This document shows, piece by piece, positions 3,360 through 59,200 of a DNA stretch of 64,000 nucleotides; the stretch's first letter is position 1; each line of letters starts with the position of its first letter. Made by a program: the position numbers and the translations under genes. The notes under the pieces are model-generated. The model did no database searches and was not told the DNA's origin. It worked only from the letters and a program-made list of their open reading frames with translations. This DNA is from Mobula hypostoma (lineage: Eukaryota): NCBI RefSeq assembly GCF_963921235.1, contig NC_086097.1:105650001-105714000 (forward strand), read 5' to 3'.

Positions 3360-3590
3360 ACCCCATTTTATTCTCTCCACATTCCCAATAACTCCACCTA
3401 GATTCTGCCACTTCCCTACACTAGGGGCAGCTCACGGTGGCCAAACTACCTACCAGCCTACACATCCCTGGGATCTGAGATGAAACCAGAGCACCTGGGG
3501 AAAGCCCACACATTCACTGAGAGAATGTGCAAATGCTACGTGCACACCAGTGGAGATTAGGATTGAATCACACTAATTGTCAGGCAGCAG
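3360..3590 (-). mobile_element. V-SINE (HE1-like) relic
   Basis: gaaaccagagcacctggggaaagcccacacattcactgagagaatgtgcaaa resembles the reverse complement of the V-SINE central domain. Confidence 0.55.
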
Positions 3591-3869
3591 CTCCATAAAT
3601 TTTTTTTTAAGGCCCATGAATGCTGCTCCAAATTTTACGAATTGAATCGCTACTTGGAGGTTGGGTAACGTGATTTCAAAATGTAGTTAGAATCCACAGG
3701 TAGTTGGGAAAATTGTAAGATCTGGAGTGTTCTTGCATTTGGCCCATCAAGTCTGCTCCACCGTTTCATCATGGTTGATCCACTTTTCCCCTCAGTCCCA
3801 ATCTCCTGCCTTGCCCGTATCCCTTCATACCCTGACTAATCAAGAAACTACAACCTCTGCCTTAAATGT

Positions 3870-4880
3870 AGGTAGATACTTTAGTGATCCCAAAGGAAGT
3901 GACAGTGTCACAGTAGCATTACGAGTGCACAGATATACAAATATTAGAAGGGAAGTAAGAAAGAATAAAAAAAATAAGTTACTTCAAACAGTCTAACAGG
4001 AGGGGGGCTGTAGGTTGAGTCATTATAGAGTCTAAGGACTGAGGGTAAGATTTACCTCATATAGCGCTCTTTAGAGCAGCGCAGTTGTCTTAGTCTATTA
4101 CTAAAAGTCCTCCTCTGTCCAGCCAAGGTGGCAGGCAGAGGGTAAGGGACATTGTCTAGAATTTCCAAGATTTTCTGTAGGGTTCTTTGTTCTACCACAG
4201 CCTCCAGTGTGTGCATTTTGACTCCTATAACAGAGCCAGCCTTTCTAATCAGTTCATTGAGCCTGTTGGCATCACCCGTGTTGATGCCATTGCCCCAACA
4301 CACCACCACATAGAAGATTGTATTGGTGACAACAGACTGATAGAGCATGTGAGGAAGAGGCCTGCATACTCCAAAGGACCTCAATCTCCTCAGGAATTAG
4401 AGGTGACTCTGGCCCTTGTACACAGCCTTTGTGTTGATGCTCCACTCAAGTCTGTCATCCAGGTGCACCTCCAGGTACTTGTAGGTCCTCACCACATCCA
4501 CGTCCTCACCATCATTCGTAACGGGGGCAGTGCAGGCTTAATGTTCCTAAAGTCCATCACCATCTCATTTGTCTTCCTGATGTTGAACTGCAGATGATCA
4601 GCTTGCACCATTTGACGAAGTCCTCCACCAGGGCCCTGTATTCATCCTCCTGTTCTCCCTTTATACACCCAACTATTGCAGAGTCATCAGAGAATTTCGG
4701 CAGATGACATGACTCAGTATTATATGTAAAGTCTGAGGTTTACAGGGAAAACAAGAAGGGAGCCAATACAGCCCCTTGTAGGGCTCCAGTGCTGATGAGC
4801 TGATTATAGCCGTGTCTGACACACAGCCCTAAAGCTGCACAACCGTGTTCAACCAGTTCGGTAGTCCATTGTCCAAGATA
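3870..4880 (-). mobile_element. Rex1/Babar-like LINE, 3' part
   Basis: ORF 4052..4384 (RSFGVCRPLPHMLYQSVV...VVCWG...LRCSKERYMR). The upstream RT motif region (KFSDDSAIVG) is readable on the minus strand near 4670-4700. Confidence 0.75.
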
Positions 4881-4894
4881 CATTATTCAATATA

Positions 4895-5310
4895 CATAAA
4901 GACTTAGCCTCCACAGTTGCCTGTGGCAACAAATTCCATAGATTCACCACTCTTTGTCAAAATAAATTCCTCCTCAACTCCGTTCTAAAAGGACATCTCT
5001 CTCTTCTGATGTTGTGTCCTCTGATCCTAGACTCTCCCACCATAGGAAACATCCTCTCCACATCCACACTATCAAGCCTTCTCACCATTCGATAGGTTTC
5101 CCCTCTTTTTTCTGAATTCCAGTGAACACAGGCCCAGAGCCATCAAACGCTCTTCATATGACGAGCTGTTCAATCCTGGAATCATTTTTGAGAGCCTCCT
5201 TTGAACCCTCTCCAGTATCAGTACATGCTTTCTAAGATAAGGGGCCCAGACCCACTCACAATACTTCATGTGAGGCCTCACCAGTGCCTTATAAAGCTTC
5301 AATGTTACAT
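4895..5310 (-). mobile_element. CR1 LINE 3' fragment
   Basis: ORF 5072..5302 KLYKALVRPHMKYC...ERVQRRLSKMIPGL...LGLCSLEFR. Confidence 0.8.
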
Positions 5311-5461
5311 CAGGTTTAATATCACCAGCATATGTTGTAAAAATCTGTTAACTTTATGGCAGCTGTACAAAGAAATACATGATCAATAAATATCGAGAGA
5401 ATTGAGTTTCATTAAGTATAAGGTTCATCCATTGTCATCGATGAAGACCTCGACACCATTA

Positions 5462-5597
5462 GTACTTTTCACGAGGTCGAGTTGCTAGCTCGACGCTCAA
5501 CCCAGCACAGATGGAGAGCGTGCATGGGAGCCCGCCGGATTCGAACTCGGGACCTTTCGCCCTGAAGTCCAGCACTGATGCCACCACATCACCAGTT
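5462..5597 (-). mobile_element. tRNA-derived SINE (same family as 15524-15660 and 39437-39700)
   Basis: Minus strand reads ctggtgatgtggtggcatcagtgctggacttc...gagttcgaatccggc (A/B-box-like), then ctgggttgagcgtcgagctagcaactcgacctcgt, shared with the other copies. Confidence 0.7.
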
Positions 5598-8190
5598 GGC
5601 TTAGCACTTGATTTGGATTTAAATGAGGGAGAGATGCGCAGCATCAGCCTCACTCTCTCTTCCCAATTCCCATCTGGATCCAGTGGCAAGACAAGATTCG
5701 AGACGGCTGGAAATGGGACTAGGCGCAGTGGATGACCAGGATGTCTTCTGTGTCTTGTCCAGCTCTACACGTTCCACGACGCTTGCAGAGACCGCCTTCT
5801 TGACCATTGGACCTTCCATTGGTCTCGTCCGCTCAATCCGCCGGAGTCTGTCTTCACATGCTGGGATAGACAACTCCCTATCTCACCGAGGGTTTGAGAC
5901 CTGTCAGCTACCCTCACCTGGTTTAGCTGGCTTGTCGTAGCCGTTGCCTGGGGTGTGGCCGCTGTCGCATGCAAACAGCTAGGAGGAGTCGCAGGTGAGA
6001 GCGGAGTGCCAGGTGGGGACCAAAGGTGGACTAACCGCCCTGAAAAGGACGTGACATATTCCCCCACCAGAGGTGCTACCCCTCCCTGACACCCCATACA
6101 CCCTACATTAAATATGTACCTCTATTAAATAGTTAAGTTAAAATAAGTAGTGAAAAGGGGAAGAAGCAGAGTGGGTCCCTTGATTTTACAATGGTAAAAA
6201 TGAGAAGATGGCTTGTCCTGAATTGTGGGATTCCTTAATGATAGATGGCATCCTCCTCAGGCACTGCTCCTTAAGGATGTCTTGGATGCAACAGAAGCTA
6301 GTACCCCTGAGGGAGCTGACTAATTTTACATCCTTGCTTTTATATTCTAGTCCTCTTGAAATGAAGGCATTTGCCTTCCTCACCACCAATTTAACCTATA
6401 AATTATCCTCTAGGAAAACCTGCACAAGGACTCCCAAGTTCCTTTGTGCCTCACTTGTTTGTATCTTCTCTCCGTTTAGAGAATAGTCAACCCTTTAATT
6501 TCTTCTACCAAAGTACATGATGAGACACTTTGCCGACCCTATTCCAACTGCCACTTCTTTGTCCATTCTCCTAATACCCAAGTCCTTCTATAGCCTCTCT
6601 GTTTCCTCAAAACTACCTGCTCCCCCACCTATCTTTGTATCATCTGCAAACTTTACAATGGAGCCATTAATTCCATCATCCGAATCATTGACGTATGACC
6701 TAAAAAGAATCTGTTCCCTGTGGAACATCACTAGTCACCGGCAGCCAGCAGGAAGAGGCTCCCTTTATTCCCACTGTTTGCCTCCTGCCAATCAGATGAT
6801 TTATTCATGCTAGAATCTTCCCTGTAATACCATGGAGACTGGAGGTCTCCCAGACTTCCCACATGGAGTACAAGACACTGCCCCAGAGCCATTTTCACTA
6901 AATTACAATGTCCTAACAGATGAGAAATGAACCAATAAAAACAGAAAGAGAGAAATTTACCAAATACTTAATCTCACCTAATGAGTCGAGGCCACTCTAA
7001 ACACTGGCACATTCAAAAGAATGTCTGCTCTGCTTGCACTTAAATTATTTGTATTGGCCCTTTCTAAGTGAGCCCTAGAGAGGTTATTGTGAGGTATGGA
7101 TGTCTGGGCTCTCTGCAGCTCAGATCAATACATGGTATGGGGTTGGGTTGATGTACTAGGCGTTAATTCATTTACTTTTGAGTGCTAATCAGGGAGATTT
7201 TCTTTTGACTTTCTTAGTAATTGAATTACCCAATAGTTAGTTTCTTATCTGTTTAAATTCTCAGCATTGGTTTAAAAATTATTTAACATGTGTACTAGCC
7301 CTTGTCCATCCATTACCTCTATCCTATCGTTGTTTAGCAGCAACTGGATTTTTAAATTTTCATCAATGTTTTTGATATCTTAGGCTGGGTCTTCCATTGT
7401 AACTTCCATCGGCCAAAACCATCAGCTTGCTTGGTCTGCATTACCTATTTCCAGATCTGCCATCTGTGTAGGTTGCAATCTCTGGAATTACTCGGGCTCT
7501 CACCTTCTCTACCCGTCTGTGCTTATTTAAGATGCTTGTTAAAGCCTGGGCTTAGCTTGAGCCAGTCTTTGTGGTCGGAAGAAAAAAACTGCAGGTCTGA
7601 GAAAGACTGGCATTAATCAGAATCAGGTTTATTATCACCATATACCCTGAAATTTGTTGTTTCACAGCAGAGTACAGTGCAAATATAAAAATGATTTTAA
7701 GCTGTGAAAACAGTGCAAAAAAACAGATAATGAAGTAGTGTTCATGAACAGTTCAGAAACTTGATGTTGGAGGGAAAGAAGCCTTTCCTGAAATGCTGAA
7801 TGTGGGTTTTCAGGTTCCTGTACCTCCCTAATAGTACTAACAAAAAGAGAGTGCATCATGGATGGTGAGGGTCCTTAATGATGGATGCCACCACTTTGAG
7901 GTATCATTGCTTGAAGATATCTTTGATGGTGGGAAGGGCGGTGTTTGTGATGTACCCCGAGTCTGCAACCCATTGCATCTTCTTTCAATCCTGTGCATCG
8001 GAGGCTCTATATCGGATGAAGACGCAACAAGTCAAATGCTCTCCACTGTACATCTGTAGAAATTTGCAAGAGTCTTTGGTGACGCATCAAATCTCCTCAA
8101 ACTCCTAATGAAATATTAGGAGATAATGGTGTGCTTTCTTTGTAATTGCATCAATATGTTGGGTCCAGGATAAATCTTCTGAAATGTTTA

Positions 8191-8380
8191 CAGGTTTCCT
8201 CCGCTATCCGAAGGTAGAGCGTTCCTATGAAACGGTTCATAAGCTGGAATGTCGTAAAGTGAATAAGCAATTACCATTTATTAATATGGGAAAAATTTTT
8301 GAGCCTTCCCAGACCCAAAAAATAACCTACAAAATCATGCCAAATAACACATAAAACCTAAAATAACAGTAACATCTAGT
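8191..8380. mobile_element. Possible Tigger/pogo-like DNA transposon end fragment
   Basis: TA followed by caggtttcctccgctatccgaaggtagagcgttcctatgaaac, resembling a Tigger-type terminus; no second end found. Confidence 0.35.
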
Positions 8381-8477
8381 AAACAACAGGAATTCTGCAG
8401 ATGCTGGAAATTCAAGCAACACACATCAAAGTTGCTGGTGAACGCAGCAGGCCAAGCAGCATCTGTAGGAAGGGGTG

Positions 8478-8515
8478 CAGTCGACGTTTCAGGCCGAGAC
8501 CCTTCGTCAGGACTA
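8478..8515 (-). ncRNA. Minimal hammerhead ribozyme motif in Penelope pLTR
   Basis: Minus strand reads tagtc-CTGACGA-agggtctcggcct-GAAAC-GTC-gactg; stem I AGTC/GACT, stem II AGG/CCT. Confidence 0.7.
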
Positions 8516-17968: not shown

Positions 17969-20186
17969 AGAATTGAAAATACACTTGGACTGAGATGTTA
18001 ACTGTCCTGTGCTATCACCAGTGGGATCATCAGTTGATCTGCCACCTGTCTTCAGGAGTTTCAGCCCGCTTATGATCAAGACTCCCTCGAGGTGGTGGGC
18101 CAGCAGTGCTAAAGCACCACCTCCCACTGGTGAGCTTAAAAACTTGGCATCTGCTTCTATCAGACTTGTTGGTCACTTCCATCCAACAGATAGTCTACTC
18201 TTCAGGTGTCTATGCAACTACTGAAGGGTTTGCAAAAGATGGATACACTGTCTGACTATCTGCCCCTCTGGACATACTTGGTCCACACCCATGATGGTCC
18301 TGTCTCTGCTGCCTCAGCTGGTTGACTTGATCTCTCTTCTAGTGAAGTCAAGGTCACGCAGCCACTTCTGGAAAGTGAACGCAATAAAGCCATGGCAACC
18401 TACTTCGAATGGATAGCATGAGACCTTCCACCCTCTGCCTCTGCACTCTGATCTTAATTCTGCATACTTGGTTAACTTGCACTCATGGGCTTCATCGATG
18501 TTGTCTTCCCAGGGAACTGTGAGTTCACCAATAACCACTTCTCTATTGGTGTCAGAGCATATGATTATATTTGGACGCAATGTGGTGAAAGCTATTTGCT
18601 CCAGGAAACTGCCTTTCCCATCCAGGTCAGCCTTGACACACCAATCATTGGCTGAAGAAAGTATGCTTGATTGTGGGCTTGTGCTGTACACCCTTGACTT
18701 GGAGCCTTCTTTCACAATCAATATGCGATGTTCTGTGCAGCAAGGGGCATGAGATGAGTTATGCTGCAGTACTCTCTGCTCAACCGCTTCTGTTACAACT
18801 TTGAGAATGTTGTTATGTCTCCGAGTGTACATGCTGCTGGAAAGATTGACTCTGCATGCACTCAAAATATGTTGAAGTGTTCCCTTCTCGCCACAAGCAG
18901 CACACCTGTCTGTCTTACCTTCATACCAGGTGCTGAGGTTGGCAGGTATTGGAAGCAGGTCATACGCTGCTCTGCATAGAAAAGAAATGCAGAGTGGTTC
19001 CATCTGCCACAGAACATTCCAAGATAGAAGTCGTTGTTCAACACTTTCCCACCTGGTCCAAGCCCCTTGTTTGGCCAGACCAGCTATTTTAGCTAACCTC
19101 TTCTCCTCTTCTACCTCTCGTATTTCTTGCGTTACAAGCTCATGGCGCTCCTTACCTGTAAAAGATGACCACCACTTGTGGGTTGTCCATCCAAGTCCCT
19201 GGAAGCCTAGCTGGGTAGCCCCAACCGTATCTTTGTGCTTCAGTCTAGACTCTGCCTCATCAACTGCTACATGGGCTGACCACTTCCTGCCTGATCTCAC
19301 ATCCGGCTGGGTGTTCTTGATGACAGGGTCTTTTGAATCTCGAAGCATCAAGACTGATCTTACCTTGGCTACCTTGACCTCTTCAACAAGGGATTGTACT
19401 GGGATGGTAAGCTTTGTCTGGCTACTGTAGATTGCAACATTGGTGAGGCTGCTCGGTACTCCAAACCACTTCTTCACATACTTGTTGATCTTCCATTCCA
19501 TTGCCTCAACATGGGACATTGCTACTTCATAGACAGTTAGTGGCCACGTTATCTGTGGCATCAGTCCGTACTGCAAGCCCCACAACTTCAACTTGCCAGG
19601 CAAGCCACACTTGTTGACAGACATCAGACCTCTGCTGATCTGTTCTCCTGTCTGTTGAACCCTCTTGGTGTCTCTCAGCTCCTCTGTGTACCATCGCCTG
19701 AGGCTCTTAGCTGGTTGGTCCTGAATGGATGGAATCTCCTCTCCACAAAGGGTGAAATGAAAGTCAACCAGCTTTCCTCTCCTAAGAACAAGGCTCCTTG
19801 GCTCCTTGACTTCTTGGTTTTGAACTTCATTCTTCCCCAATCCATTAGTTCCTGGAGTCTAGATGGTACACTTTCCACTGCCTCTGTGCTAGGACCCAAA
19901 AGGGTGAGATCGTCCATGAACGCTTGTATTGGTGGTAACTCCCCTCCGCCATCAAGTGCGACACCTGGTCCCACTGATTCTGCAGCCCTCGCAATGACCT
20001 CCATAGCTAACACAAAAAGGATGGGTGAAATCGCACATCCCATTGGGATTCCAACATCCAAGCTCTGCCACCTAGTTGTAAACTATTGAGTGGAAAACCT
20101 CATCCGGAAATCGTTGTAGTACCGCATAACAAAGTTCCTCACCTGAGCAGGAATCCATAGGAATTCCATCGCAAACTCAGGGCATA
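17969..20186 (-). mobile_element. HERO-like non-LTR retrotransposon (RT plus CCHC finger plus restriction-like endonuclease), 5'-truncated, one frameshift
   Basis: ORF 19675..20061 GIPMGCAISPILFVLAME...AFMDDLTLL. ORF 18314..19840 CAACGEKGTLQHILSAC, RHNNIL, RPNIII...ELTVPWE...KLTKY...EVGCHGF. Interrupts a CR1 relic. Confidence 0.85.
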
Positions 20187-33654: not shown

Positions 33655-36600
33655 TTTAAACTAGAATGGTTGTGGGGAGGGAATCAAATTAAGGAGACTA
33701 GGACAGGGGAGGAAGAAAAAGATAACAAAGTTGTTTGCTCAATTAAGGATAAACAGAGAGTTGGAGGTGGAGAGTTTCTTAAATGCATCTATTTTAATGC
33801 TAGGAGCATTGTAAGAAAGGTGGATGAGCTTAGAGCATGCATTGATACCTGGAAAAATGATGTTGTAGCTGTTAGTGAAACATGGTTGCAGGAGGGGTGT
33901 GATTGGCAACTAAATATTCCAGAATTTCGTTGCTTCAGGTGTGATAGAATAGGAGGGACAAGAGGGGGAGGTGTTGCATTGCTTGTCAGAGAAAATATAA
34001 CAGCGGTGCTCTGGCAGGATAGATTAGTGGACTCATCTAGAGAGGCTACTTGGGTGGAATTGAGGAATAAGAAAGGTGTTGTGACGCTTATAGGGGTGTA
34101 TTATAGACCACCTAATGGGGACCGAGAACTGGAGGAGCAAATTTGTAAGGAGATAGCAGATATTTGTATTAAATTTTCCACACACAGACTGGGAAGCCCA
34201 TTTTGTAAAAGGGCTGGATGTTTTGGAGTTTGTAAAATGTGTGCAGGATAGTTTTTTGAAGCAATACATAGAGTTACCAACTAGAGAAGGATCAGTGTTG
34301 GATCTCCTGTTAGGAAATGAGATAGGGCAGGTGACGAAGGTATCTGTTGGGGAGCACTTCGGGTCCAGTGATCACAATACAATTAGTTTCAGTGTAATTA
34401 TGGAGAAGGATAGGACTAGACCTAGGATTGAGATTTTTGATTGGAGAAACTTTGAGGAGATGCGAAAGGATTTAGAAGGAGTGGATTGGGAAAATTTGTT
34501 TTACGGGAAGGATGTAACAGAGAAATGGAGAACATTTAAAGGTGAAATTTTGAGGATTCAGAATCTTTACATAGAAACATAGAAAATAGGTGCAGGAGTA
34601 GTCCCTTCGAGCCTGCACCGCCATTTATTATGATCATGGCTGATCATCCAACTCAGAACCCCGCCCCAGCCTTCCCTCCATACCCTCTGACCCCTGTAGC
34701 CACAAGGGCCATATCTAACTCCCTCTTAAACATAGCCAATGAACTGGCCTCAACAGTTTCCTGTGGCAGAGAATTCCACAGATTCACCACTCTCTGTGTG
34801 AAGAAGTTTTTCCTAATCTCGGTCCTAAAAGGCTTCCCCTCTATCCTCAAACTGTGACCCCTCGTTCTGGACTTCCCCAACATCGGGAACAATCTTCCTG
34901 CATCTAGCCTGTCCAATCCCTTTAGGATCTTATACGTTTCAATCAGATCCCCCCTCAATCTTCTAAATTCCAACGAGTACATGCCCAGTTCATCCAGTCT
35001 TTCTTCATATGAAAGTCCTGCCATCCCAGGAATCAATCTGGTGAACCTTCTTTGTACTCCCTCTATGGCAAAGATGTCTTTCCTCAGATTAGGGGACCAA
35101 AACTGCACACAATACTCCAGGTATGGTCTCACCAAGGCCTTGTACAACTGCAGTAGTACCTCCCTGCTCCTGTACTCGAATCCTCTCGCTATAAGTGCCA
35201 GCATACCATTCGCCTTTTTCACCGCCTGCTGTACCTGCATGCCCACTTTCAATGACTGGTGTATAATGACACCCAGGTCTCGTTGCACCTCCCCTTTTCC
35301 TAATCGGCCACCATTCAGATAATAATCTGTTTTCCTATTTTTGCCACCAAAGTGGATAACTTCACATTTATCCACATTAAATTGCATCTGCCATGAGTTT
35401 GCCCACTCACCCAACCTATCCAAGTCACCCTGCATCCTCTTAGCATCCTCCTCATTGCTAACACTGCCACCCAGCTTCGTGTCATCCGCAAACTTGGAGA
35501 TGCTGCATTTAATTCCCTCATCCAAGTCATTAATATATATTGTAAACAACTGGGGTCCCAGCACTGAGCCTTGCGGTACCCCACTAGTCACCGCCTGCCA
35601 TTCTGAAAAGGTCCCGTTTATTCCCACACTTTGCTTCCTGTCTGCTAACCAATTCTCCACCCACACCAATACCTTACCCCCAATACCGTGTGCTTTAAGT
35701 TTGCACACTAATCTCCTGTGTGGGACCTTGTCAAAAGCCTTTTGAAAATCCAAATATACCACATCCACTGGTTCTCCCCTATCCACTCTACTAGTTACAT
35801 CCTCAAAAAATTCTATGAGATTCGTCAGACATGATTTTCCTTTCACAAATCTATGCTGACTTTGTCCGATCATTTCACCGCTTTCCAAATGTGCTGTTAT
35901 CACATCCTTGATAACTGACTCCAGCAGTTTCCCCACCACCGACGTTAGGCTAACCGGTCTATAATTCTCCGGTTTCTCTCTCCCTCCTTTTTTAAAAAGT
36001 GGGGTTACATTAGCCACCCTCCAATCCTCAGGAACTAGTCCAGAATCTAACGAGTTTTGAAAAATTATCACTAATGCATCCACTATTTCTTGGGCTACTT
36101 CCTTAAGCACTCTACCCTTTTACATTCCTATTAGGTTGAAAGGAAAGGTTAAAAGTTTGAGAGAGCCATGGTTTTCAAGAGATATTAGAAACTTGGTTCA
36201 GAAAAAGAGAGAGATCTTCAATAAATATAGTCAGCTTGGAGTTAATGAGGTACTCGAGGAATATAAAGAATGTAAAAAGAATCTTAAGAAAGGAATTAGA
36301 AAAGCTAAAAGAAGATACGAGGCTGCTTTTTCAAGTAAGGTGCAAATAAATCCAAAGGGTTTCTAAAGTTATGTTAGTGGCAAAAGGATAATGAGGGATA
36401 AAATTGGTCCCTTGGAGAATCAGAGTGGACGGCTATGTGCGGAGCCAAAGGAGATGGGGGAGATTTTGAACAATGTCTTTGGTATTCACTAAGGAGAAGG
36501 ATATTGAATTGTGTAAGGTAAAGGAAACAAGTAGGGTAGTTATGGAAAGTATGACAATTAAAGAAGAGGAAGTACTGACACTCTTAAGGAATATAGAAGT

Positions 36601-42390: not shown

Positions 42391-43490
42391 ATTTGACAGA
42401 TGTATTTGACATGAAGTGCAACAAACCTTGTGACAACTTTCAAAATAAAACAATACATGCACATTCTTAAAATGTAAAGTAAAATGGAAAATGTACATTG
42501 TGGGGATTCCTGGCCCAAAAATTAAAGATGGTTCAATTGGGTGTATGGAGAGGAAGTAGCTAGTAATCACAAGGGTTAGTGGATTTCTCGGAACTTTTCT
42601 TCACCTAACCCAGTCCATGCAAAAAAAAGACTTAAGTAACTGAGGCAGAAGGGTGTTGAGTAAAGACAGCTTGTCAGATTGGTTGGGGATAGCCTTGGCG
42701 ATGAAAATTAGAGAAGTTAATTAGATGTGGAGGCTGGTGGAAAAAAATCTGCCCTCCTCACCATCACAGATCTTCCATTTACCTTTCTACTGACTTTGAA
42801 GTAGTTAAATCCGTAATATAGCTGCTTTGAACTGCCTTGACTGAAGCATTAACTCTGTATTTCTTAGCTTGTCTCTGCAGAGCACCTGGGTATTTCTATT
42901 TTTTTTGGCACTCATATTTTTCTTTCATTCATTTCATATGAGGGATCTATTAAATGAGGTAAAATAACAATTAACAGAACTTTTTCCATTTTTAGGACAT
43001 CACACTGGAATCTTTTTATTCTCTTTCCAAACTGCCAGTAGTGTATCAGAAACACCAGGTAGAAAGTAATCATTGAGCTAATAGGCTGACTGTGTTTATT
43101 GAGGAATAGAAGAGATCAGACTCAAGTGAAATAACCAGAAAACAATGTACAGATAAGCAAACTAAAGTAGGAAACTGTTCAGCAGAAATGCATCACAATT
43201 AAAAAGCCAGAAACTTGGCAGCAGCAAAGTGGAAAAAAATGCCATGTACCGAGTTCATTGGCAATGACAAAGATGAGGAATGAAAATAAAACTTCAGGCA
43301 AAATTTGTAAAACCTGTATTAAAAAGGAGCCATCATATACATTAAGAAAGGCGGGGAGAAGGGAAAAAATGGGGAGCTATAAACCAGTTAGCCTGTCATC
43401 AGTTTGGGAAGGGAAATGGTAGAAATTATTAGGGAAGAACTAACAGGGCATGTGGAAAATAATAGGCAACCTGGGCCTGGTTGATATAGG

Positions 43491-44075
43491 TGTCAGGGTT
43501 TCTTCTTTTATGTTACTGCTAAGGTGAATAAAATGGCTTCTCTGTACTGTTAACTGCTGAGGCAGTGGTTCTCTATAGCAGCATGTTTGGGTTATAATTA
43601 GTGATAACGGGACTTGCTAATCAATTGGGATAGATGTTATTCTTTCTGTATGTGTGAAAGCTGTTAGTTTGCGTGGGCTTGGGGGAGAAGGTGCAAAGAG
43701 GATGAAGAGAGAAGACGTGTCTTGAGGAGACAGTTGCCGGACCCACTGGGCCTGGGCTAGGGGCAGGAGCCCAGGGGTCAACAACGAGCGAAGGAGGGTC
43801 AGCGAAAGGGAATCTGTAAGCTCCAACGTTTGTGCACTAGACATGTTTATGAGATTATTGGTGCCTTTTATTTGTTTTCCTTTTCTTTTATTTCTCTACT
43901 AACCCCATACTTAAATATAAAATCTCAATCGTTTAACCGCACATTGTGGACTGAATGTTATTCTGGGGTACAGGGGACAGGACATGCAGCATCCACCCAA
44001 ACAAGAGTGCTAAAGTTTGGCAGGGTAGGGGGTGCCACCCCCGAAATCATGCCAGTAGGCAAAGCGAGTGTTACA
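43491..44075 (+). repeat. 5' LTR
   Basis: tgtcagggtttcttctttt...gcaaagcgagtgttaca; direct repeat of 47207-47806. Confidence 0.95.
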
Positions 44076-44078
44076 ATG

Positions 44079-44096
44079 TGGGGGCTCGTCTGGGAA
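44079..44096 (+). other. Primer-binding site, tRNA-Pro type
   Basis: TGGGGGCTCGTCTGGGAA versus canonical tRNA-Pro PBS TGGGGGCTCGTCCGGGAT (16/18), 3 nt after the LTR. Confidence 0.85.
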
Positions 44097-44251
44097 ATGG
44101 ATTTTTGTAGGGTGCTGCGTGTTCGCCCTGTTTAAATCAGTGCCGGTGTGTCTCTGTGGGGTTGGGGTAATGTGTGTCTCTGTGGGATTGGGGTTAGTAA
44201 TGGGCTGAGTGGGGTGGATATTCATACCTTGGATGAATTGTTAATTCGATT

Positions 44252-45100
44252 TTGAATATGGTTAAAGCTGATGGCAAGTTTGAAATTGTAGCACAAAAGG
44301 TTGATAAAATGGCTGTCTCAGACCTTGCTTTAGCGCGGGCTAGCGCTGACGTCATGAAGGTGGGATTGCCAGTGTCTATTGGTGCCCCGGGTGAGGTGGG
44401 GCCATGGACTGTCCATACTGTCAGGAGGGAGGGGGAAGAGTGTTCAGAGTTTGAACGTCTAATCAGTCCTCGTCCCCCAGTGGAGAGTGAGAATTCTGGG
44501 GTAGTGTATGCTTTTGTTTCTCTAGCAAATAGATGTTCCCGCTATGGCAGGCTTGGCTTTTCCTTTGGAACAATGCCCACCCCTGAAGGGGCGGAGGCGT
44601 ACGAGACGTGGGCAGAGGCGTACGAGACATGGGCGGAGTGGATCTCTCAGTTGTTAGATAAGTGGCAGTGCTCGGATGAGGGAAAGCGGCAGGGATTGGT
44701 TGAAAGTTTGAGTAGGCGGGCTGGTGACGGTGTTAGAACTGTCAGGGTCAATTACCCTGTAGTGACAGCTGCCAGAAATCTGAAAACAGGGGGAAATGCA
44801 TTTGGTTCAACTGGAAGTAAAATGCAGCACCTGGGGGGCTTTCCATACCTGTGTCAGGAGATTGGGGGAAAGTTTTCAGGGTATTTTCTCTGGCTGGGGG
44901 GGGCAGATAAATTGCTTGTGGTGCCGGGGGATCAGTTAAGGGGATCAGCCCCTCCCTCAGTTGTTCAGCTGATCAGAGAGGTGTTGGGAAACTTAATGGA
45001 GGCCCAGTGGGGGAACGGCTTGGGGTCTCTGGGGGAACACGTTCCCAACAATGTACCAAGGAACTTCAGGAAGAAAAAGACCCTATTTCTGAGGGCTTAG
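44252..45100 (+). pseudogene. gag, PNMA/MOAP1-like capsid (degenerate)
   Basis: F(S)GTMPTPEGAEAYETW...WQCSDEGKRQGLVESL...AFGSTGS...F..LCQ..GGKFSGY resembles the PNMA-type Gypsy capsid motifs. Confidence 0.75.
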
Positions 45101-45465
45101 TGGGACCACGCTTCAGTGTGTCGTTACGGATGGAGGGAAGCTATGCTAAGGCCATCCTCGACACTGGGGCGCAGGTCAAGTTGTTGTACAGTTCGTTTTA
45201 CAACTGGTATTTAAAGCATTTTCCCTTGACACCATTTCGGGCACTGGAAATTCGGAATATCAGTGCTAGGGATTATCCAGAAGACGATTGGAATCCAGTG
45301 AAATTGGAGTTCTTGGAGGCCAAGGTGGGGGTGTCTGAGGTTTGTGAATCGTTAGTGCTGATGTGTCCAAACACTGTTGAGACTGGCAGCGTTTCGATTC
45401 TGGAGGGGACCAACACCCTGCTGGTGAGGAAGGCACATGGGGGCCTGCCAGGAGGAGGTGGGTGA
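45080..45465 (+). pseudogene. Retroviral-type aspartic protease
   Basis: EGLVGP...[11 protein letters not shown] (DTG at 45160-45168)...ILEGTN. Confidence 0.8.
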
Positions 45466-45635
45466 GAGCTGTTTAGGGGCACTGTCTGTGCACCCCTTGT
45501 TTTGAGCTGCTTGTGAGGATGTGTGTAGCAGCATTGGGCCGGTACCGAATTTAAGCGAGAGCCAATGCTGGAAGTATCTGAGGGTGAGCCCCTCTTTGTG
45601 GACGCTCTGACATACCACGGTGGGGGGGTGGGGAG

Positions 45636-46760
45636 TTGACTGCTGAAGACATCTCGGTGAGAGAGAGGTCGCGGCGACTGGCCCCTGCAGACATGGAGGA
45701 CATAGGCAGGGTGAGTGTGGGTTATAGGATCCTGAACAGGCGCACCGTACCTGACCAGTATGCGGTCACGAGGGTCAAAGACGCGCTGGTCTGTCTGAGT
45801 GGTGCGAAGTGGTTTAATGTGCGGGATCTGAGGAGTGGATGTTGCCAGATCCTAATGAGTGAGGCTGACAAGGAGAAGACGGACGTTATAAGTCCCCTGG
45901 GATCCTTCCAGTCCGAAAAGATGCCCCAGGTGATATCCGGAGCCCTTGCACCTTTCCAGTGGGGCATGAGGAAGACGGTGGGGAATGTGGAATTTTTTGG
46001 AGTTTTGGTGTATTTGGATGATCTCCTAGTATGTGGATCTGCCTCGGAAGAATATGAAGCGAGGCTGTTGCAGGAGCGGTTGAGAACTAAAGAGTTAAAG
46101 CTTTCTCTGGACACGTGCCAGGTCTGGCGAAGGTTGCAGCTCATGAGTGACTGTCTCTACGGGATCAAGTTTGAAGTGAAGACGGAGAGACAAAATTCCC
46201 AGCAGAGACTGGAGAAAGTGATCCAGAACCGGTTGGAAGACTTGCAAGTTGGGGAAGACAAAGAAAGCTGTCTGACTAAGGCCAACAGAAAACCAAGAAC
46301 CCAGAGAGGGGAGTTTGACTACACTTCCGAGGAGGTGAAGCAATTGCGGATAGATCTTGGAAGAGGGAAGCGGACGCTTGAAGGGAACCTGAAGATGACC
46401 ATCCACAGTTTAAATGAAGTGGAAAACCTGAAAGTTGACCTGGAAGAAGTTATCAGGAAGAAAAAGCTGGAGATAAGTTCAGTGGACACTAAACTGGAAG
46501 CTGAACAATCTTTAACTGCTGCTTTTCAGGTCAGGGTGGAAGAAGCTGGTGGAGTAACTGCGTCCCTGATTGAGATGGCCAAGAAGCGTGAGTCAGAACT
46601 GCTGAGACTGTGGCGAGAGTTGGAGGAGTCCAGGAAGAAGCTGTCGTCTCGATTACAGGAGGCTGAAGAGGCTGCAGAAGCAGACCAGGCCAGGTGCTCC
46701 AGCATGGAGAGAACCAACCAGCAGCTACATTCAACGGATGATGAGATGGAGGTGTGGTAA
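45636..46760 (+). pseudogene. Chimeric open frame: deleted Gypsy RT, RNase H remnant, then myosin heavy-chain coiled-coil
   Basis: [13 protein letters not shown]...DLRSG...[10 protein letters not shown] (YLDD 46011-46022); [12 protein letters not shown] (RNase H remnant); then myosin tail motifs from about 46200 to 46730. Confidence 0.85.
46200..46730 (+). pseudogene. Captured, intronless, internally deleted sarcomeric myosin heavy-chain rod fragment (MYH16-like)
   Basis: [91 protein letters not shown], and [31 protein letters not shown]. Confidence 0.85.
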
Positions 46761-47206
46761 ATGCTGCCTTTCGCTAACTTCCCCTTGTTGGGTGAAGAGA
46801 CTCCTGGCCCTTCTCCCACTGAGTCAGGTGAGGAGGGTGGGGTGCTAGCTGTGGGCAGCCTGGGTTACTGCAGGTCCCTGAAAGAGAGACGGGTGCCTGC
46901 ACACAGGACAGAACGCTCCGAGTTGCAGTGGGGGTACGAGTGAGAGATTGGGAGAGGAGTCGGCAAGCAGACCCGAGGTATCCCTAGTAGTGTCCGAGCC
47001 TGAAGGGTTTAGGTGAGGGGGTACGGAGGTCTCAGAGGATTAGGAAACTCCCAGATGGGTTGGCCTATGTAGCGCCTGGGGAACAGGGCGTAAGGTCTAC
47101 TGTTTGGGGAGCAAAGTCGCTGTTTGTACCTGGATTGGGTTTTTGTGTCTGCAGGAAGGGTTGGCAAGTTATTTAGGAGTCATGACTAAATTGGGTGGGG
47201 GGAGAG

Positions 47207-47806
47207 TGTAAGGGTTTCTTCTTTTATGTTACTGCTAAGGTGAATAAAATGGCTTCTCTGTACTGTTAACTGCTGAGGCAGTGGTTCTCTATAGCAGCAT
47301 GTTTGGGTTATAATTAGTAATAACAGGACTTGTATTCATTTGCTAACCAATTGGGATAGATGCTATTCTTTCTGTCTGTGTGAAAGCTGTTAGTTTGCAC
47401 GGGCTTGGGGGAGAAGGTGCAAAGAGGATGAAGAGAGAAGACGTGGCTTGAGGAGACAGTTGCCGGACCCAGTGGGCCTGGGCTTGGGGCGGGAGCCCAG
47501 GGGCCGACGACGAGCAAAGGAGGATCAGTGAAAGGGAATTCGTGAGCTCCAATGTTTGTGCACAGGACATGTTTATGAGATTATTGGCACCTTTTATTTG
47601 TTTTCCTTTTCTTTTATTTCTCTACTAACTAAATAAATATAAAATCTCAATCGTTTAACAGCACATTGTGGCCTGAATGTTATTTCGGGGCACTGATGTT
47701 ACACAGGGGACACAACACGCAGCATCCACCCAAACGAGTGCTAAAGTTTGGCCGGGTGGGGGGTGCCACCCCCGAGATCATGCCACTAGGCAAAGCGAGT
47801 GTTACA
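47207..47806 (+). repeat. 3' LTR
   Basis: tgtaagggtttctt...gcgagtgttaca (TGTAA/TTACA terminal inverted repeat), preceded by PPT gggtggggggagag. Confidence 0.95.
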
Positions 47807-47942
47807 TAGGGTTTTAAATGAGAGATGGTGCTTGACAAATCTGCTGTGGTTTTACACTTTGGAAAGGTCCACAATGAAATGTCCCATAAGAAGTTATTAA
47901 ACAGAATTGAAGTACATGAAATTGAGTCACATAGACATAAAT

Positions 47943-48145
47943 TGAAGATTGGATCATGGAGGCGTGAATTGAGGATCAGATCATGGAGGTGTGGATTGAG
48001 GATCGGATCATGGAGGTGTGGATTGAGGATCGGATCATGGAGGTGTGGACTGAGGATTGGATCATGGAGGCGTGGAATGAGGATCGGATCGTGGAGGCGT
48101 GGATTGAGGATCGGATCGTGGAGGCGTGGGTTGAGGATCGGATCG
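47943..48145. repeat. 27-bp minisatellite, about 7.5 copies, inside a CR1 RT relic
   Basis: Unit tgaggatcggatcatggaggygtggat. Confidence 0.9.
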
Positions 48146-50364
48146 GGTTTTGGACCGTCAAGGCGTGGGTCGAGGATTGTTTACGGGGTAGACAAGCAGA
48201 AAAAGATTGAACAAGTCTTTTTCCGATCACAAAATGGACCAGTTGGGTGGCAGATCAGTGCTGGCCTTTAACAAGTTTTATCAGTGAGGGTGAGGGGATC
48301 AGGTGTTTGCTAGTGATACAAATCTCAGTGGCAGTGCGGGCATTGGGAAGGATGCAGAAAGGCTTCAGAGACAAAAATGTGGCAGGTAGTAAACCAGAGA
48401 TTTTTTTGAATAGTGAGAATTTTTTTTCTCTTGACACAGAGAAAATTCAGAGCAAAGTATTCTCTTTACACTGACTACTTTCCTCTTCCACTCACAACCG
48501 TGTCAGGGTCTTAACATTGACAATTCTGCTAAATATTATGTTGGCAGCAGAATGTATGTCTTTACTTGCAGGCTGCTCCCAGCACATCCTTGAGTGTGTT
48601 GGTTTTGAATGTAAATGACTCTTTTCAGAATCAGATTTGTTATCAGGTCTATTGTAGCATTATATTAATATATATAATGTTAGATTAAAAATAGTGCAAA
48701 ACAGAAATAATATTTATAAAACAAAAGTGAGGTAGTGTTCATGGGTTCAATGTTCATTTAGGAATCATATGGCAGAGGAGAAGAAGCTGTCCTGAGTCAC
48801 TGAGTGTGTGCCTTCAGCCTTCTGTACCTCCTTTGACGGTAACAATGAAAAGAGGGCATGTCCAGCGTGATGGGGGTCCTTAATGATGGAGGCTGCCTTT
48901 GAGGCACTACACCTTGAAGATATCTTGGATGCTTTGAAGGGCTAGAACCCAAGATGGAGCTGACTAATCTTATAACTTGCTGTAGGTTCTTTCGGTCCTG
49001 TGAAGTTTCTGAATGTTTTAGTTGACAAACCAAATCTCCTCAATCTCTTAATGAAGTATAGCAGCTGTCTTGCCTTCTTTTTAGCTGCATCGATATGGTG
49101 GGACCAGGTTAGAGCCTCAGATGTTGACACCCAGGAATTTGAAATTGCTCTCTTCTGATCCCTCTGATCACTGAATGTTTTGATGTACATGCAATAACTC
49201 TGAATCTAAGGTTATCTCTCAGTCTCCTTCATTCCAGGGTATCCAGTCCCTCCTTATAACTCAAGCCTTCCAGAACCGGCAACGTCCTTGTGAATCTTTT
49301 CTGTACGTTCTACCTACGTTATCATATTTTATAGTAAGGTGACTGGAACTGCACAGACAGTATTAATAGATACATTCTCACCAACATTTGTACAGCTCTA
49401 AAATGAAACCCTAACTCTTGTACTTAGTGTCCCATCCAGAGTAGGCAAGTGTGCTATACACTTTCATCTTGACTACCTGTGTGACCACTTACGGAACCTA
49501 TATACTTGTATCTCAGAGTATTTCTGTTCTATAGTGCTGCCCATGACCCTGCCATTCACTGTAAATATCTTCCCAAAATATATTACTCTGCACTTGTCAG
49601 AGTTAAATTCCATTTGCCATCTTCAGCCTACTTTCTCGATCCTGTGGTAACCTTGGACAAGCTTCTTCACTGTCTACAACGCCACCAGTTTTGGTATCTG
49701 CAGACTTTCAGATCATGCCAGTGATATTTTCATCCAAATCATTAATATATGTGACAAACAACAGAACTCAGCACTGATGCAGAATCAAAGACCTCCACTC
49801 TAGGGGTGAAAAAACAACCCTCCACCACCACCCTCTGACTCCAATGAAGAAGCCAAATTTGTATCCATTTGTAACCATGAGATTCTGCAGATTGCTGAAA
49901 ATTCAGAGTAACACCTACAAAGACTAGAGGATCTCATCATTCCTGATGAAGGATCTCTGCCTGAAATGTCGACTGTTTATTCCTCTCCAAATATGCTGTG
50001 TGATCTGCTGAGTTCCTCCAGCATTTTGTATGTGTTACTCTCTATATCCAATTGGCTAGCTCACTCTGGATCCTAGGTGATTTCACATTTTGAACAAGCT
50101 TATCATATGCTGAATTACCTGTTGTAACTTTCCCCAGTACTGATGTCCGGCTCACCAGGCTGTCATTTCCTGGCTTGTCCTTGCAGCTGCTGCTTGTATA
50201 AGTGCACTATATGCAGGTACCTCACTTGAGGCTAAGGAAGATACAAAGATCTTTACCAGGACTCCAGTGATTTCTAGTGTCCCACAAGGTCCTGGGGTGC
50301 ACTTTGTCCAGCCTTATGCACCTCAAGATCACTAACCCACCTTGGGGTTGGTGTAGGCAACAGT

Positions 50365-50677
50365 GGGATTGACATAGGGACAGAATGGCCTATTCATGTG
50401 GTTGTATTGATCAGTGGGATTGACACAGGGACAGAATGGTCTATTCATGTGGTTGTATTGATCAGTGGGATTGACACAGGGACAGAATGGTCTATTCATG
50501 TGGTTATATTGATCAGTAGGATTGGCACAGGGATGGAATGGCCTATTCATGTGGTTGTATTGATCAGTGGGATTGGCACGATGGAACAGCCTATTCATGT
50601 GGTTATATTGATCAGCGGGATTGGCACAGGGACAGAATGGTCTATTCATGTGGTTATATTGATCAGTGGGATTGGAA
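50365..50677. repeat. 51-bp minisatellite, 6 copies plus a partial one
   Basis: Unit gggattgrcacagggacagaatggyctattcatgtggttrtattgatcagt; the fifth copy is 3 nt shorter. Confidence 0.9.
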
Positions 50678-50889
50678 CACAACAGAACAAAAACTGGGTT
50701 AGGGACGAGCCACTGAGCCATGCAGTGGTAATGGGAGTGAGATGTCAGAAATTTGTTTGTCTCAGTGCACACTAGGAAAATTGTGGACGTGGTGTTCAAA
50801 GAAATATGACAATATCACCTATGCTTCTTTACCATATTTAGAGATGATCATGATCAGTGGATTTCTCTTCTGGATTCCTCAACATTTTT

Positions 50890-56292: not shown

Positions 56293-59200
56293 TCACGTAC
56301 CCTGTGACGGGAATAAAGAACCAGCAGAGATGGAAAACACTTTGGAGTCCAGTATTGCTATTAACTAATAATATTTATTAGTAACTATGCAATACAGTAA
56401 TATAAGTGTAGATAAATCGAACAAGTTAGCATAAGTAAATCAGTAGGTGTGGAAATATATGTGAAAACCAAGCTTCATCAAGTCTAGGGGTAAAAAGATA
56501 CAGTCTTACGATGATGAGTAAAGTTCAGTTCAGTTAGTGGTATTGAGTTGAGTAGTGATGGGGAGAGAGAGGAGGAGAGATTTGAGTCTTCAGGTGAGCT
56601 GACGCCGTCGATCTTCTCGTTGTCCTCTGAAATCCTTTAAAAAGTCACTGACTATGACCACAACAAAGGGGACTAGTTTTCTGTGGTGGAGCTATCACCC
56701 AGGCAAGGGTGGACACATGGACAACTCCCCACCAGTCAACCCCTTTCCTTTTCACTGTAAGAGCCACTGATCAATCTGCCTGATCAATCCTCCAAAAACC
56801 CACTTTTTCTGCGGGCACAACAAAGCTCATTCAGTATCCAAAACATGTGTCTGAGGTCTATATCATCTGACCTCCTATTTTATCTTCCCGTACTGAGCAT
56901 CAGCTGTCAGTCAAATAACTTCTCCTTCCTTTGTGTAAGAAATGTACAAGCAAGCAAATATCCTTGAAGAAAATACAAACAATCCATGAGCAGTCTTCAT
57001 CTCCCTCCCTCTCTCTCTTTTAAAACAAGTTGTTGGTGTTAAATAACTCTCTCTCTCTCTCTCTTTTCCAAAGCACAGTTCATAGGGGTAATCGAGCACA
57101 GTTCATGGGGGTAATTCAGGACCCCGTTACACCCCTTTCTTCAGAAAAAAGAATTTTTGACGAAGGCGAAATTTTTAGTCTAAATGTAAATTGCAGAGTT
57201 TGAAACAATACATGTATGATCATCAGATGACAGCAAAAATATGTACAATTTCCAACTTAACATCTGGATGAGCAATCAGCGATAATATTGTCAGTACCTT
57301 TCACATGTTTGATTGTCAGATCAAATTCTTGCAATATCAGACTCCAATTTAACAACCTTCTATTCTTACCCTTTATCTTAGTTAGAAACACCAACGGATT
57401 ATAATCCATGTAAACCACAAGTGGTCTCTGGGTGACAGAAAGATTTCGAGGTTTTTTTTTTGAACAGAGGTCTCAAAATGTTGCAAGGCCAGAATAAGTG
57501 CTAGTAATTCCTTTTCAACAGTTGAATAATTTCTTTGAGAAATAAGCTACTGAGTGTTCAATGTCATCCACACCCTTCTGTAACAGTACTGCCCCAGCAG
57601 TTTCGTCACTAGTGTCTGTTGCTATCGAAAATAGTTTTGAAAAATCAGGTGCTTTGAGCATAGGATGATAACACAGGATGGTTTTCAGACGTTCAAATGC
57701 CTCCTGGCAAAGGTCATTCCATAAAAATCTTTCACTCTTCCCTAGGAGTTTTGTTAGGGGGAGAGCGATGTCAGCAAAGTTCTTACAAAACTTACAATAA
57801 TACCTAACCACTCCTAAAAACCTACTCAAAGCTTTCTTGCCGGTCGGAACAGGAACCTCATCAATAGCTTGAACCTTGGCCTGTACAGGAGCCAGTTGGC
57901 CTTGGCCCACCACATAGCCCAGATATGTAACTGTGGCATCACCAAATTCACTTTTAGTGAGGTTCATGGCAAGATTGGCCTTGGGAAATCTGTCACACAG
58001 TTTTCCTACAGCTGCAATATGCTCTTCCCACGTGTCATTCCAGACCATTAAATCATCGATATAAACCCCTGTGTTTTCTAAACCTCTAATCACAGAATTG
58101 ATCATTCTTTGAAATGTCCCTGGTGCATTTTTCATCCCGAAGGGTAAACCATTGTGCTCATACAGTCTAGACAGTGTCACAAATGCTGATATCTCTTTAG
58201 CCCTCTCTGTCAAAGGAACACCCCATCATCCTTTTAACAAGTCAATCTTAATAAGGTATTTAGCCTTCCCCACTCTATCAATACAATCACTCATTCTCTT
58301 TCCTTGTTCTTTCTTGTTTCTAATTTCTTCAACCATTTTACTTCTCTCAAAGTTCACTCTGTGAAGATACTGTTTCATGGGCTGGGCTGAATTTATAATG
58401 ATGTAATGCACTGCACCTGTGCACCGCTTCAAAATGCCAATTAGTCCTTTCACTTGTTTTTGAGGTTTAGGGTCCAACTGATGGACCTTATCAGTAATCT
58501 TTTTCAAAACAATGGAATCTGACGTCTTGGTGAGATTAGATTCAGTAGGTAAACATGTTTTTCCATCCCATTATCAGATTCCACGACTCCATTTTGTTCC
58601 ATAACAATTCTCCCAGCTGAATTCCAGCAAACAAGTGTTTTATTTTGATTCGACCATTCTGTAAACCCTCCTTTGCAAGGCCACAAATCTTAGTAAATCC
58701 CTTCCAGAATTTTAAAACATAATTAAGCACACTGACACATGTTTCCAAATCAGACCATAGTTCTCTGAATAGGGTCAAAGGTCCTTTTGGCCTGTAACTG
58801 GACACAGGTTCCAACAAACTACCCTCCAATGCCTTCTGAATCGAATCTCCAACAATAAATAAGAGTAGGGGAACCCTCTCGTTCCAATTTTTCCCATTTC
58901 TCACACAATATGCTTTAATCATGGTCTTAAAAGTTGAGTTGAAGCGTTCCAAGGCTCCCTTGGACTCCGTGTGATATACAGATGATACCATGTGCCTAGC
59001 TTCCAGTTCTCTAACTATCCCCTGGAATGTTCTCGAAGTAAAGTTACTGCCCTAGTCAAATTGCATTTCTTTGGGCAGACCTACCAGTATGAAAAACTTA
59101 CTGAATGACTTCACCACAGTCTTGGCCTCGATATTTTCAAAAGACACTGCTTCAGGGATCCTAGACACAGCACACACAATTGTTAACTCATACTGATAAC

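Follow-up and report, generated by a model that had tools for sequence, protein, structure and literature searches.

A Ty3/gypsy retrotransposon family of rays with a spliced myosin rod fragment in the place of integrase

How does a stretch of muscle myosin come to lie in frame behind a reverse transcriptase (RT), and does the resulting reading frame belong to a gene or to a repeat? The question is raised by a 4.3-kb element of Ty3/gypsy type in the genome of the ray Mobula hypostoma, at positions 43491-47806 of the window, the term used here for the whole 64,000-nucleotide stretch of DNA that was analysed (contig NC_086097.1, positions 105,650,001 to 105,714,000 of the forward strand, in an assembly of 3.48 Gb). 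An earlier note on this DNA, made from the sequence alone, had described the element as a gypsy retrotransposon that captured a myosin heavy-chain mRNA segment. The answer reached here, in which our confidence is high, is that the window holds an old, dead copy of a non-autonomous Ty3/gypsy family, the founder of which had the integrase part of its pol gene swapped for a piece of spliced mRNA from a myosin gene on contig C68 of the same genome. The parts of the element are as follows, in window coordinates.

43487-43490, no strand: 5' copy of the target duplication, TAGG, read directly; the identical four bases follow the 3' long terminal repeat (LTR)
43491-44075, plus strand: 5' LTR, 585 bp, TG...CA, from direct-repeat families D2-D5
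44079-44095, plus strand: primer-binding-site-like 17-mer, 3 nt past the 5' LTR, its position read in the sequence
44237-45100, plus strand: gag-like open frame, 287 codons, with a PNMA-type capsid domain (Pfam PNMA)
44911-45465, plus strand: protease-like open frame, 184 codons, with a D-T-G motif, in a frame that differs from the gag frame
45588-46148, plus strand: RT remnant, YLDD retained, with a 31-residue internal gap; start of the 390-codon frame
46149-46178, plus strand: short RNase H remnant, aligned by eye to the RNase H frames of element copies L047 and L052
46179-46729, plus strand: intron-free myosin rod piece, from PDB phmmer, host exon matches and the tree
46730-47192, plus strand: remnant of the Pol C-terminal end and the 3' untranslated part, from similarity to the relative L053
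47193-47206, plus strand: polypurine tract adjoining the 3' LTR, read directly
47207-47806, plus strand: 3' LTR, 600 bp, from direct repeats
47807-47810, no strand: 3' copy of the target duplication, TAGG, read directly

The boundaries given in the earlier note, namely two LTRs, the TAGG target duplication and the polypurine tract, are seen in the sequence and in the aligned repeats. LTR ends of TG and CA together with a short target duplication of 4-6 bp are a hallmark of Ty3/gypsy elements, and the two LTRs of the window are 93.1% identical over 579 aligned bases, with a Kimura two-parameter (K2P) distance of 0.073. Remnants of gag, protease, RT and RNase H follow one another in gypsy order, and integrase is absent from this copy while its target duplication is intact, as had been remarked before. 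The gag-like frame matches Pfam PNMA at 6e-12 (45.8 bits, cut-off 25), and a 21-bp tandem duplication of 2.4 copies lies within it at 44589-44638. The protease-like frame falls under the cut-off of Pfam RVP (E 0.077), and the DNA of this region is similar to the gag-protease region of L053, an autonomous relative in the same genome. Likewise, the RT falls under the cut-off of Pfam RVT_1 (E 5.7e-6, 26.6 bits, cut-off 29.6) and aligns by BLASTP with the RT of L053 at 55% identity (E 4e-57), with a gap of 31 residues. The stop-free frame that leads from RT through the RNase H remnant into myosin, put earlier at 374 codons, is counted here as 390 (45588-46757). The thirty bases at 46149-46178 had been tried as part of the myosin, an assignment dropped given the RNase H frames of L047 and L052, which they match in agreement with the earlier note.

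The identity of the sequence behind the RNase H remnant was established by comparison with proteins of known structure. Residues 12-193 of the translated stretch match MYH4 (9.2e-20) and MYH7 (1.6e-18) in a phmmer search of PDB, and the match is discontinuous, falling into three rod pieces at roughly residues 998-1108, 1151-1180 and 1385-1429 of MYH4. The in-frame sarcomeric myosin rod of the earlier note is therefore real, and the generic coiled coil that it had considered as an alternative was not borne out. The piece measures ~550 bp, with parts of at least seven exons and three internal deletions, and encodes only ~185 gapped rod residues without a head, neither the motor domain nor the complete rod being present. 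The top matches in a large protein collection are ray chimeras of the same kind (two unnamed Mobula birostris proteins and one Hypanus sabinus protein), and below them stands a long list dominated by the names myosin-16 and myosin-16-like, at 35-45% identity.

The myosin piece derives from spliced host mRNA, as had been proposed. It is contiguous over at least five exon joints, the exon limits being those of the canonical MYH16 gene of this genome, which lies on contig C36 and was mapped exon by exon with Latimeria MYH16. Both ends of the piece fall within coding exons. A poly-A tract and a target duplication of its own, which the earlier note would have taken as marks of a separate insertion, were looked for; there is no run of A at 46700-46800 and no target duplication around the piece.

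The donor gene lies at 14.40-14.67 Mb of C68; it has giant introns and, as a paralog, is sister to MYH16. When the myosin frame of copy L047, which is better kept, was used in a near-protein search, ten proteins were found, all of them batoid, as are the top three among the longer protein matches; their sources are Mobula birostris, M. hypostoma, Hypanus sabinus, Hemitrygon akajei and Narcine bancroftii. The Narcine gene has two isoforms, and because the difference between them is exactly one MYH exon, this gene has introns. Queries made from the start of Narcine protein P0122 and from P0124 located C68 exons at 14401226, 14480487, 14564082 and 14612355, and further exons lie at 14524963 (found with a query from a stretch of L052) and at 14666485. 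The exons are 40-85 kb apart, ~0.6 Mb from a myosin gene cluster, and the four that were read in context (E0, E1, E3 and f) have AG acceptors and GT donors. The canonical gene on C36 was considered as donor and rejected, the C68 exons having only 70-82% DNA identity to it. The earlier assignment of the donor to MYH16 thus stands for the MYH16 group and fails for canonical MYH16 itself. Two side observations concern this gene. The donor locus at 14401226-14666742 (loci L049, L050, L051, L054 and L055) would be either a headless rod gene or a full myosin, and its Narcine counterpart is annotated only as proteins of 225-234 residues with a non-myosin first exon and without a motor domain.

Host exons were compared at the DNA level with 39 element copies. 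Exon E3 (146 nt) is matched in all 39, at 75.5-96.6% identity, and its bases 3-146 correspond to window positions 46316-46459 at 87.5%. The first 64 nt of exon f are matched in 36 of the 39 (80.6-92.2%) and correspond to window positions 46569-46632 at 90.6%, while the whole of exon E1 (105 nt) is matched in four (81.0-96.2%). Exon E0 is 91% identical to L052 over 230 nt, in a match that starts 2 nt ahead of the exon and ends at the donor site, and a query of E1 extended by 163 nt of intron gave matches to the copies that never went past base 105. Because the resemblance to host exons breaks off at the splice sites, the cargo is mRNA that came from the C68 gene and had been spliced. The 3' donor exon was not found on C68, where it is too short to rank among the ~1,000 element copies.

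What the myosin replaced can be read from L052, the least-deleted copy seen, which runs from RNase H through myosin into the Pol C-terminal tail and is in frame at both joints: a 274-codon frame leads from the end of RNase H into exon E0, and a second one, of 189 codons, joins myosin to the Pol tail. In the autonomous relative L053, gag, protease and RT share a frame of 1065 codons, and RNase H and integrase share another of 1461 codons, with the Pfam domains RT_RNaseH, Integrase_H2C2 and rve, the first of which sits where the window has its RNase H remnant. The RNase H end common to L052 and L053 agrees at 27 of 28 bases. Between the points that flank the myosin of L052, the relative holds ~536 residues that include Integrase_H2C2 and rve; past them, the tail of L052 matches L053 Pol residues 743-784 (48% identity, E 2e-6), and window positions 46731-46841 match positions 6321-6436 of L053 at 75% DNA identity. 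Because of this comparison, the founder is seen to have lost integrase only, with both joints in frame, and the myosin took the place of pol sequence instead of interrupting it. The element-like sequence that had been noticed behind the myosin is thus homologous to the C-terminal end of L053 Pol. The earlier claim that both RNase H and integrase had been replaced holds for integrase but not for RNase H, the full end of which is kept in older copies. In L053 itself, the last part of the Pol frame consists of tandem repeats (6430-8501, C76:3025729-3027800) that extend over at least 2 kb, have a period near 84 bp, are open in several frames and begin right after the stretch homologous to the tail of the chimera.

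The myosin of L052 can be followed without a gap from base 1 of E0 as far as base 64 of exon f and resumes at the end of a later exon; one and the same acidic motif, a short one, is present on either side of this jump. Copies of the window type are missing three more stretches, one that extends from a point within RNase H up to the end of E0, one inside E1, and one around exon 5, the last of these between two similar motifs; the internal myosin gaps differ between sub-lineages. The near-complete loss of RNase H in the window copy and its three myosin gaps are secondary deletions at short repeats. Exon skipping was tried as an explanation of the three gaps and rejected, since L052 and L030 hold the missing stretches and the edges of the gaps lie inside exons, at short repeats. 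Misassembly had been named as a further concern, and contigs from four other sequencing runs span the joint between RNase H and myosin (for instance at 45826-46274); these runs carry only a guessed RNA label, and the contigs, which hold family members together with host-type sequence, cannot show transcription. Host-type sequence is found in the contigs of two runs guessed to be RNA at a depth of 343-380.

The chimera is not confined to the window. A DNA query that covers both joints (46100-46800, 701 nt) found 1071 first-look candidates in the genome, of which 40 were scored, giving 46 matched pieces; the whole query is covered by 25 of these, one of them being the window copy, and the 24 others lie on many contigs at 86-91% identity. 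The first 20 copies fetched, again from many contigs, all have the build LTR-gag-protease-RT-myosin-tail-LTR, one sub-lineage being without the stretch that corresponds to window positions 44435-44610. Both ends were found for 15 copies, and the flanking 4-bp duplications are perfect and all different in nine, have one mismatch in three, and are unclear in three, while LTR-to-LTR K2P distances in 13 copies range from 0.066 to 0.123. Because the duplications are distinct and the LTR distances are of this size, the chimera itself integrated repeatedly and the insertions are old. It retrotransposed: the same joints recur in the 24 other whole-query matches, with different target duplications. The multi-copy family with independent insertions that the earlier note had foreseen thus exists. 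One of its sub-lineages, represented by L046 (C5:66899000-66906500), carries at 3408-5558 on the minus strand a single frame of 716 codons that covers gag, protease, RT, an RNase H fragment and myosin, and that by eye is nearly identical to P0002, a protein of Mobula birostris; the genome holds many further copies of this sort, the frames of which are 300-800 codons long.

The relation of these copies to one another and to host myosins was examined in a maximum-likelihood tree of 27 rows (nine MYH16, nine other sarcomeric chains, three donor and six element rows), in which several rows are less than half filled and two element rows are long-branched. The insert groups with MYH16 and not with chains of the MYH7, MYH6, MYH4 or MYH15 type. 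The six element rows, among them a Hypanus protein, form one clade (100/99) that is sister to the C68 exons of its own genome (99/97), with the Narcine gene outside (100/99) and a branch of 0.17 separating the element clade from the host exons. Donor and elements together are sister to the MYH16 clade that includes the C36 gene, and do not fall inside it (100/100). The tree points to a single capture, and would fit one that took place once Narcine had split off and no later than about the time when Mobula and Hypanus diverged, with horizontal spread as a possible alternative. Several batoid proteins have the same joint between RNase H and myosin. A Hypanus sabinus protein annotated as 'transmembrane protein 192 isoform X1' reads gag-protease-RT-myosin, and public ray genomes (proteins P0004, P0122-P0131) have element copies under this name and under those of 'putative uncharacterized protein MYH16', 'myosin heavy chain, cardiac muscle isoform-like' and 'myosin heavy chain, striated muscle-like'. 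Such entries are repeat-derived gene models, and their names are misleading.

The copies of the family decay neutrally. At the first, second and third codon positions, the pairwise diversity of 34 copies in the myosin part amounts to 0.094, 0.107 and 0.113, a test that covers decay after insertion and is blind to selection on the active lineage. Stops in the frame of the window are found in 23 of the 34, many others have indels not divisible by three, and the frames break at different places in different copies. The long frame of the window is a survivor of the ancestral in-frame fusion and not a maintained gene, and nothing suggests a working RT-myosin gene.

The history that would connect these observations begins with the packaging of a host mRNA into a virus-like particle, a step taken from published cases. 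During reverse transcription, the enzyme most probably switched near the end of pol from the element RNA onto the myosin mRNA, copied ~1 kb of it backwards, the stretch between rod residues ~1415 and ~886, and switched a second time onto the element just past RNase H. The founder kept the LTRs with the primer-binding site and the polypurine tract, and of the coding parts gag, protease, RT and RNase H. Autonomous gypsy elements would have supplied the integrase and, at a later stage, all the enzymes, and gypsy elements with long intact frames are present in the genome. Help in trans is implied by the fresh target duplications of copies that have no integrase. The family spread to about a thousand copies in myliobatiform rays, and its sub-lineages lost more pieces through deletions between short repeats. 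The template switch, the mobilisation in trans and the timing we infer.

Several observations weigh against parts of this account. In L052, 45 nt between the end of RNase H and E0 match neither the context of the host exon nor L053, and copies of the L046 type have their RNase H-myosin joint at a different point from those of the L052/L047 type; this difference is read as a secondary deletion, the alternative being a second recombination event. No autonomous master with this LTR was found among the 150 of 188,433 RNase H candidates and the 40 of 4,727 candidates of an LTR-plus-leader query that were scored, and the autonomous parent sharing the LTR that the earlier note had expected is thus missing from the latter set. 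The closest integrase-bearing relatives, among the 150 scored of those 188,433 candidates, are only 61-73% identical in RNase H, L053 has no LTR similarity to the chimera family, and LTR pairs among the 40 scored matches stand 3.4-4.3 kb apart. Pfam Myosin_tail_1 gives no match to the myosin part of the window even at E 10, and in the less decayed L052 it reaches 6.4e-10, with 38.0 bits against a cut-off of 38.1. Furthermore, copy numbers are counts of first-look candidates and not of verified copies, and the presence of the family in Hypanus and Hemitrygon rests on annotated proteins rather than genomes. The 17-mer at 44079-44095, which like the polypurine tract stands where a gypsy element would have it, is only putatively complementary to the 3' end of tRNA-Pro.

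Other origins of the chimera have to be set against the same evidence. A processed myosin pseudogene made by a long interspersed nuclear element (LINE) inside a pre-existing LTR element, and later spread by segmental duplication, might be thought of in a window and a genome where LINE and RT frames are plentiful. It is already contradicted, and extremely improbable: the piece has neither poly-A nor flanking duplication, it sits in place of integrase and does not interrupt it, both of its joints lie inside coding exons, and its copies on many contigs are LTR-bounded, each with a distinct 4-bp duplication. The reverse direction, in which the C68 gene would have been built from exonised element copies and the coiled coil would be the element's own, could appeal to the short Narcine models without a motor domain, and has next to no chance of being right. 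Shared intron positions contradict it, the limits of the C68 exons coinciding with those of canonical MYH16 on C36 and the Narcine isoforms differing by exactly one such exon; moreover, the widely spaced exons each have a splice acceptor and donor, the group nests in the sarcomeric myosins as sister to MYH16, and in the autonomous relative this position is taken by integrase and not by myosin.

The two remaining alternatives leave the origin in mRNA untouched. That related gypsy elements captured myosin more than once, independently, is an idea to which the two types of RNase H-myosin joint and the variable myosin gaps lend some colour, but the element rows form a single clade on a branch of 0.17 from the host exons, the joint of myosin with the Pol tail and that of exon f with exon j are common to L052, the window type and the Hypanus proteins, and deletions alone suffice to account for every difference if the starting form was like L052, which makes repeated capture very improbable. 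Selection on the RT-myosin frame, now or recently, either as a domesticated fusion gene or as a coiled coil that aids multiplication, would account for two original joints in frame in L052 (a chance of ~1 in 9), for the persistence of frames of 390 codons in the window and 716 in L046, and for the gene models in several ray annotations. It is nevertheless highly improbable in view of the near-equal diversity over codon positions, of the stops and frameshifting indels, of the breaks at differing places, and of the 31-residue gap in the RT of the window type. Capture of a spliced C68 mRNA in exchange for integrase, followed by retrotransposition and neutral decay, is the reading that we retain.

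The window holds further repeats and frames beside the element. A 27-bp minisatellite of 7.6 copies (92% matches) lies at 47941-48144, ~135 bp past the 3' end of the element, and a 51-bp tandem repeat of 6.3 copies (90% matches) lies at 50361-50679. Three long frames were compared with Pfam.

18314-19858, minus strand: 514-codon frame, no Pfam match
34653-36119, minus strand: 488-codon frame, Pfam RVT_1 (3.9e-33)
57515-58225, minus strand: 236-codon gypsy-like frame, Pfam RVT_1 and RT_RNaseH_2

Acutely transforming retroviruses are defective recombinants in which spliced host sequence is fused in frame with viral sequence and which depend on a helper. Unlike the products of such oncogene transduction, the ray element has no env, no infectious cycle shown and no sign of cargo activity, and its spread is through the germ line. 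Closer parallels are the LTR-mediated chimeric retrocopies described by Tan et al. (2016, Genome Res 26:1663, PMC5131818), whose account has the reverse transcriptase switch, guided by microsimilarity, between element RNA and a co-packaged mRNA that then replaces an internal part of the reading frame, and has the products retrotranspose again as non-autonomous elements. The ray family is like the cases presented there in that intron-free host mRNA replaces an internal part of the frame, both LTRs flank it and poly-A is lacking. Microsimilarity at the joints is the hallmark of those cases (PMC5131818), and the putative switches would predict it at both original joints of the ray family. The chimeras of Tan et al. 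are young, with one or a few copies (15 polymorphic in flies, five of seven retrocopies in zebrafish and four of ten in chicken; PMC5131818), unlike the ray family, which is old (LTR K2P 0.07-0.12), with ~1,000 candidate copies in several ray genera. Gene-carrying LTR retrotransposons are also on record from plants, Bs1 of maize and the rice elements (as cited in PMC5131818) being likewise non-autonomous with transduced pieces of host genes.

Among vertebrates, crocodilian endogenous retroviruses are described as having captured host mRNAs, nectin3 in CrocERV31 and KIT-ligand (Chong et al. 2014, Retrovirology 11:71, PMC4299795). There too, by that account, acquisition of a host mRNA cost a viral gene, the lineage went on to multiply, and related species share the capture (PMC4299795). 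As reported, however, the crocodilian viruses had env replaced by whole frames that are intact and under purifying selection, in a handful of insertions, six for nectin3 (PMC4299795), whereas the ray family is a gypsy retrotransposon and not a retrovirus, had integrase replaced by a mere fragment of a rod, decays neutrally and is far larger. The earlier note knew of no description of such an element; this has to be qualified, as the kind of event is already published in these two papers (PMC5131818, PMC4299795). A search of the full-text literature found no paper on a myosin-carrying retrotransposon or on the ray family, nor a vertebrate case with this copy number.

What the capture meant for the element is a matter of conjecture. 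A rod that dimerised in the place of integrase may have aided the entry of the defective Gag-Pol into helper particles or its assembly there, which, if true, would explain how the chimera, with about a thousand copies, outgrew its unseen parent; another possibility is that the copies are at present a source of small RNAs directed against the donor, there being many of them in sense and antisense orientation and the donor seeming strongly represented in the contigs of the runs guessed to be RNA. A role of either sort is highly improbable.

The finding itself is neither a new mechanism nor a new function. It is a clear and abundant case of host-mRNA capture in a vertebrate, in which the donor locus is identified, the replaced part of pol is defined, a single origin is supported by the tree and the product has been amplified about a thousand-fold. 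It is also a source of mis-annotation for the rays, because copies of the family are annotated as myosin genes, and batoid myosin gene counts and orthology calls are contaminated by them.

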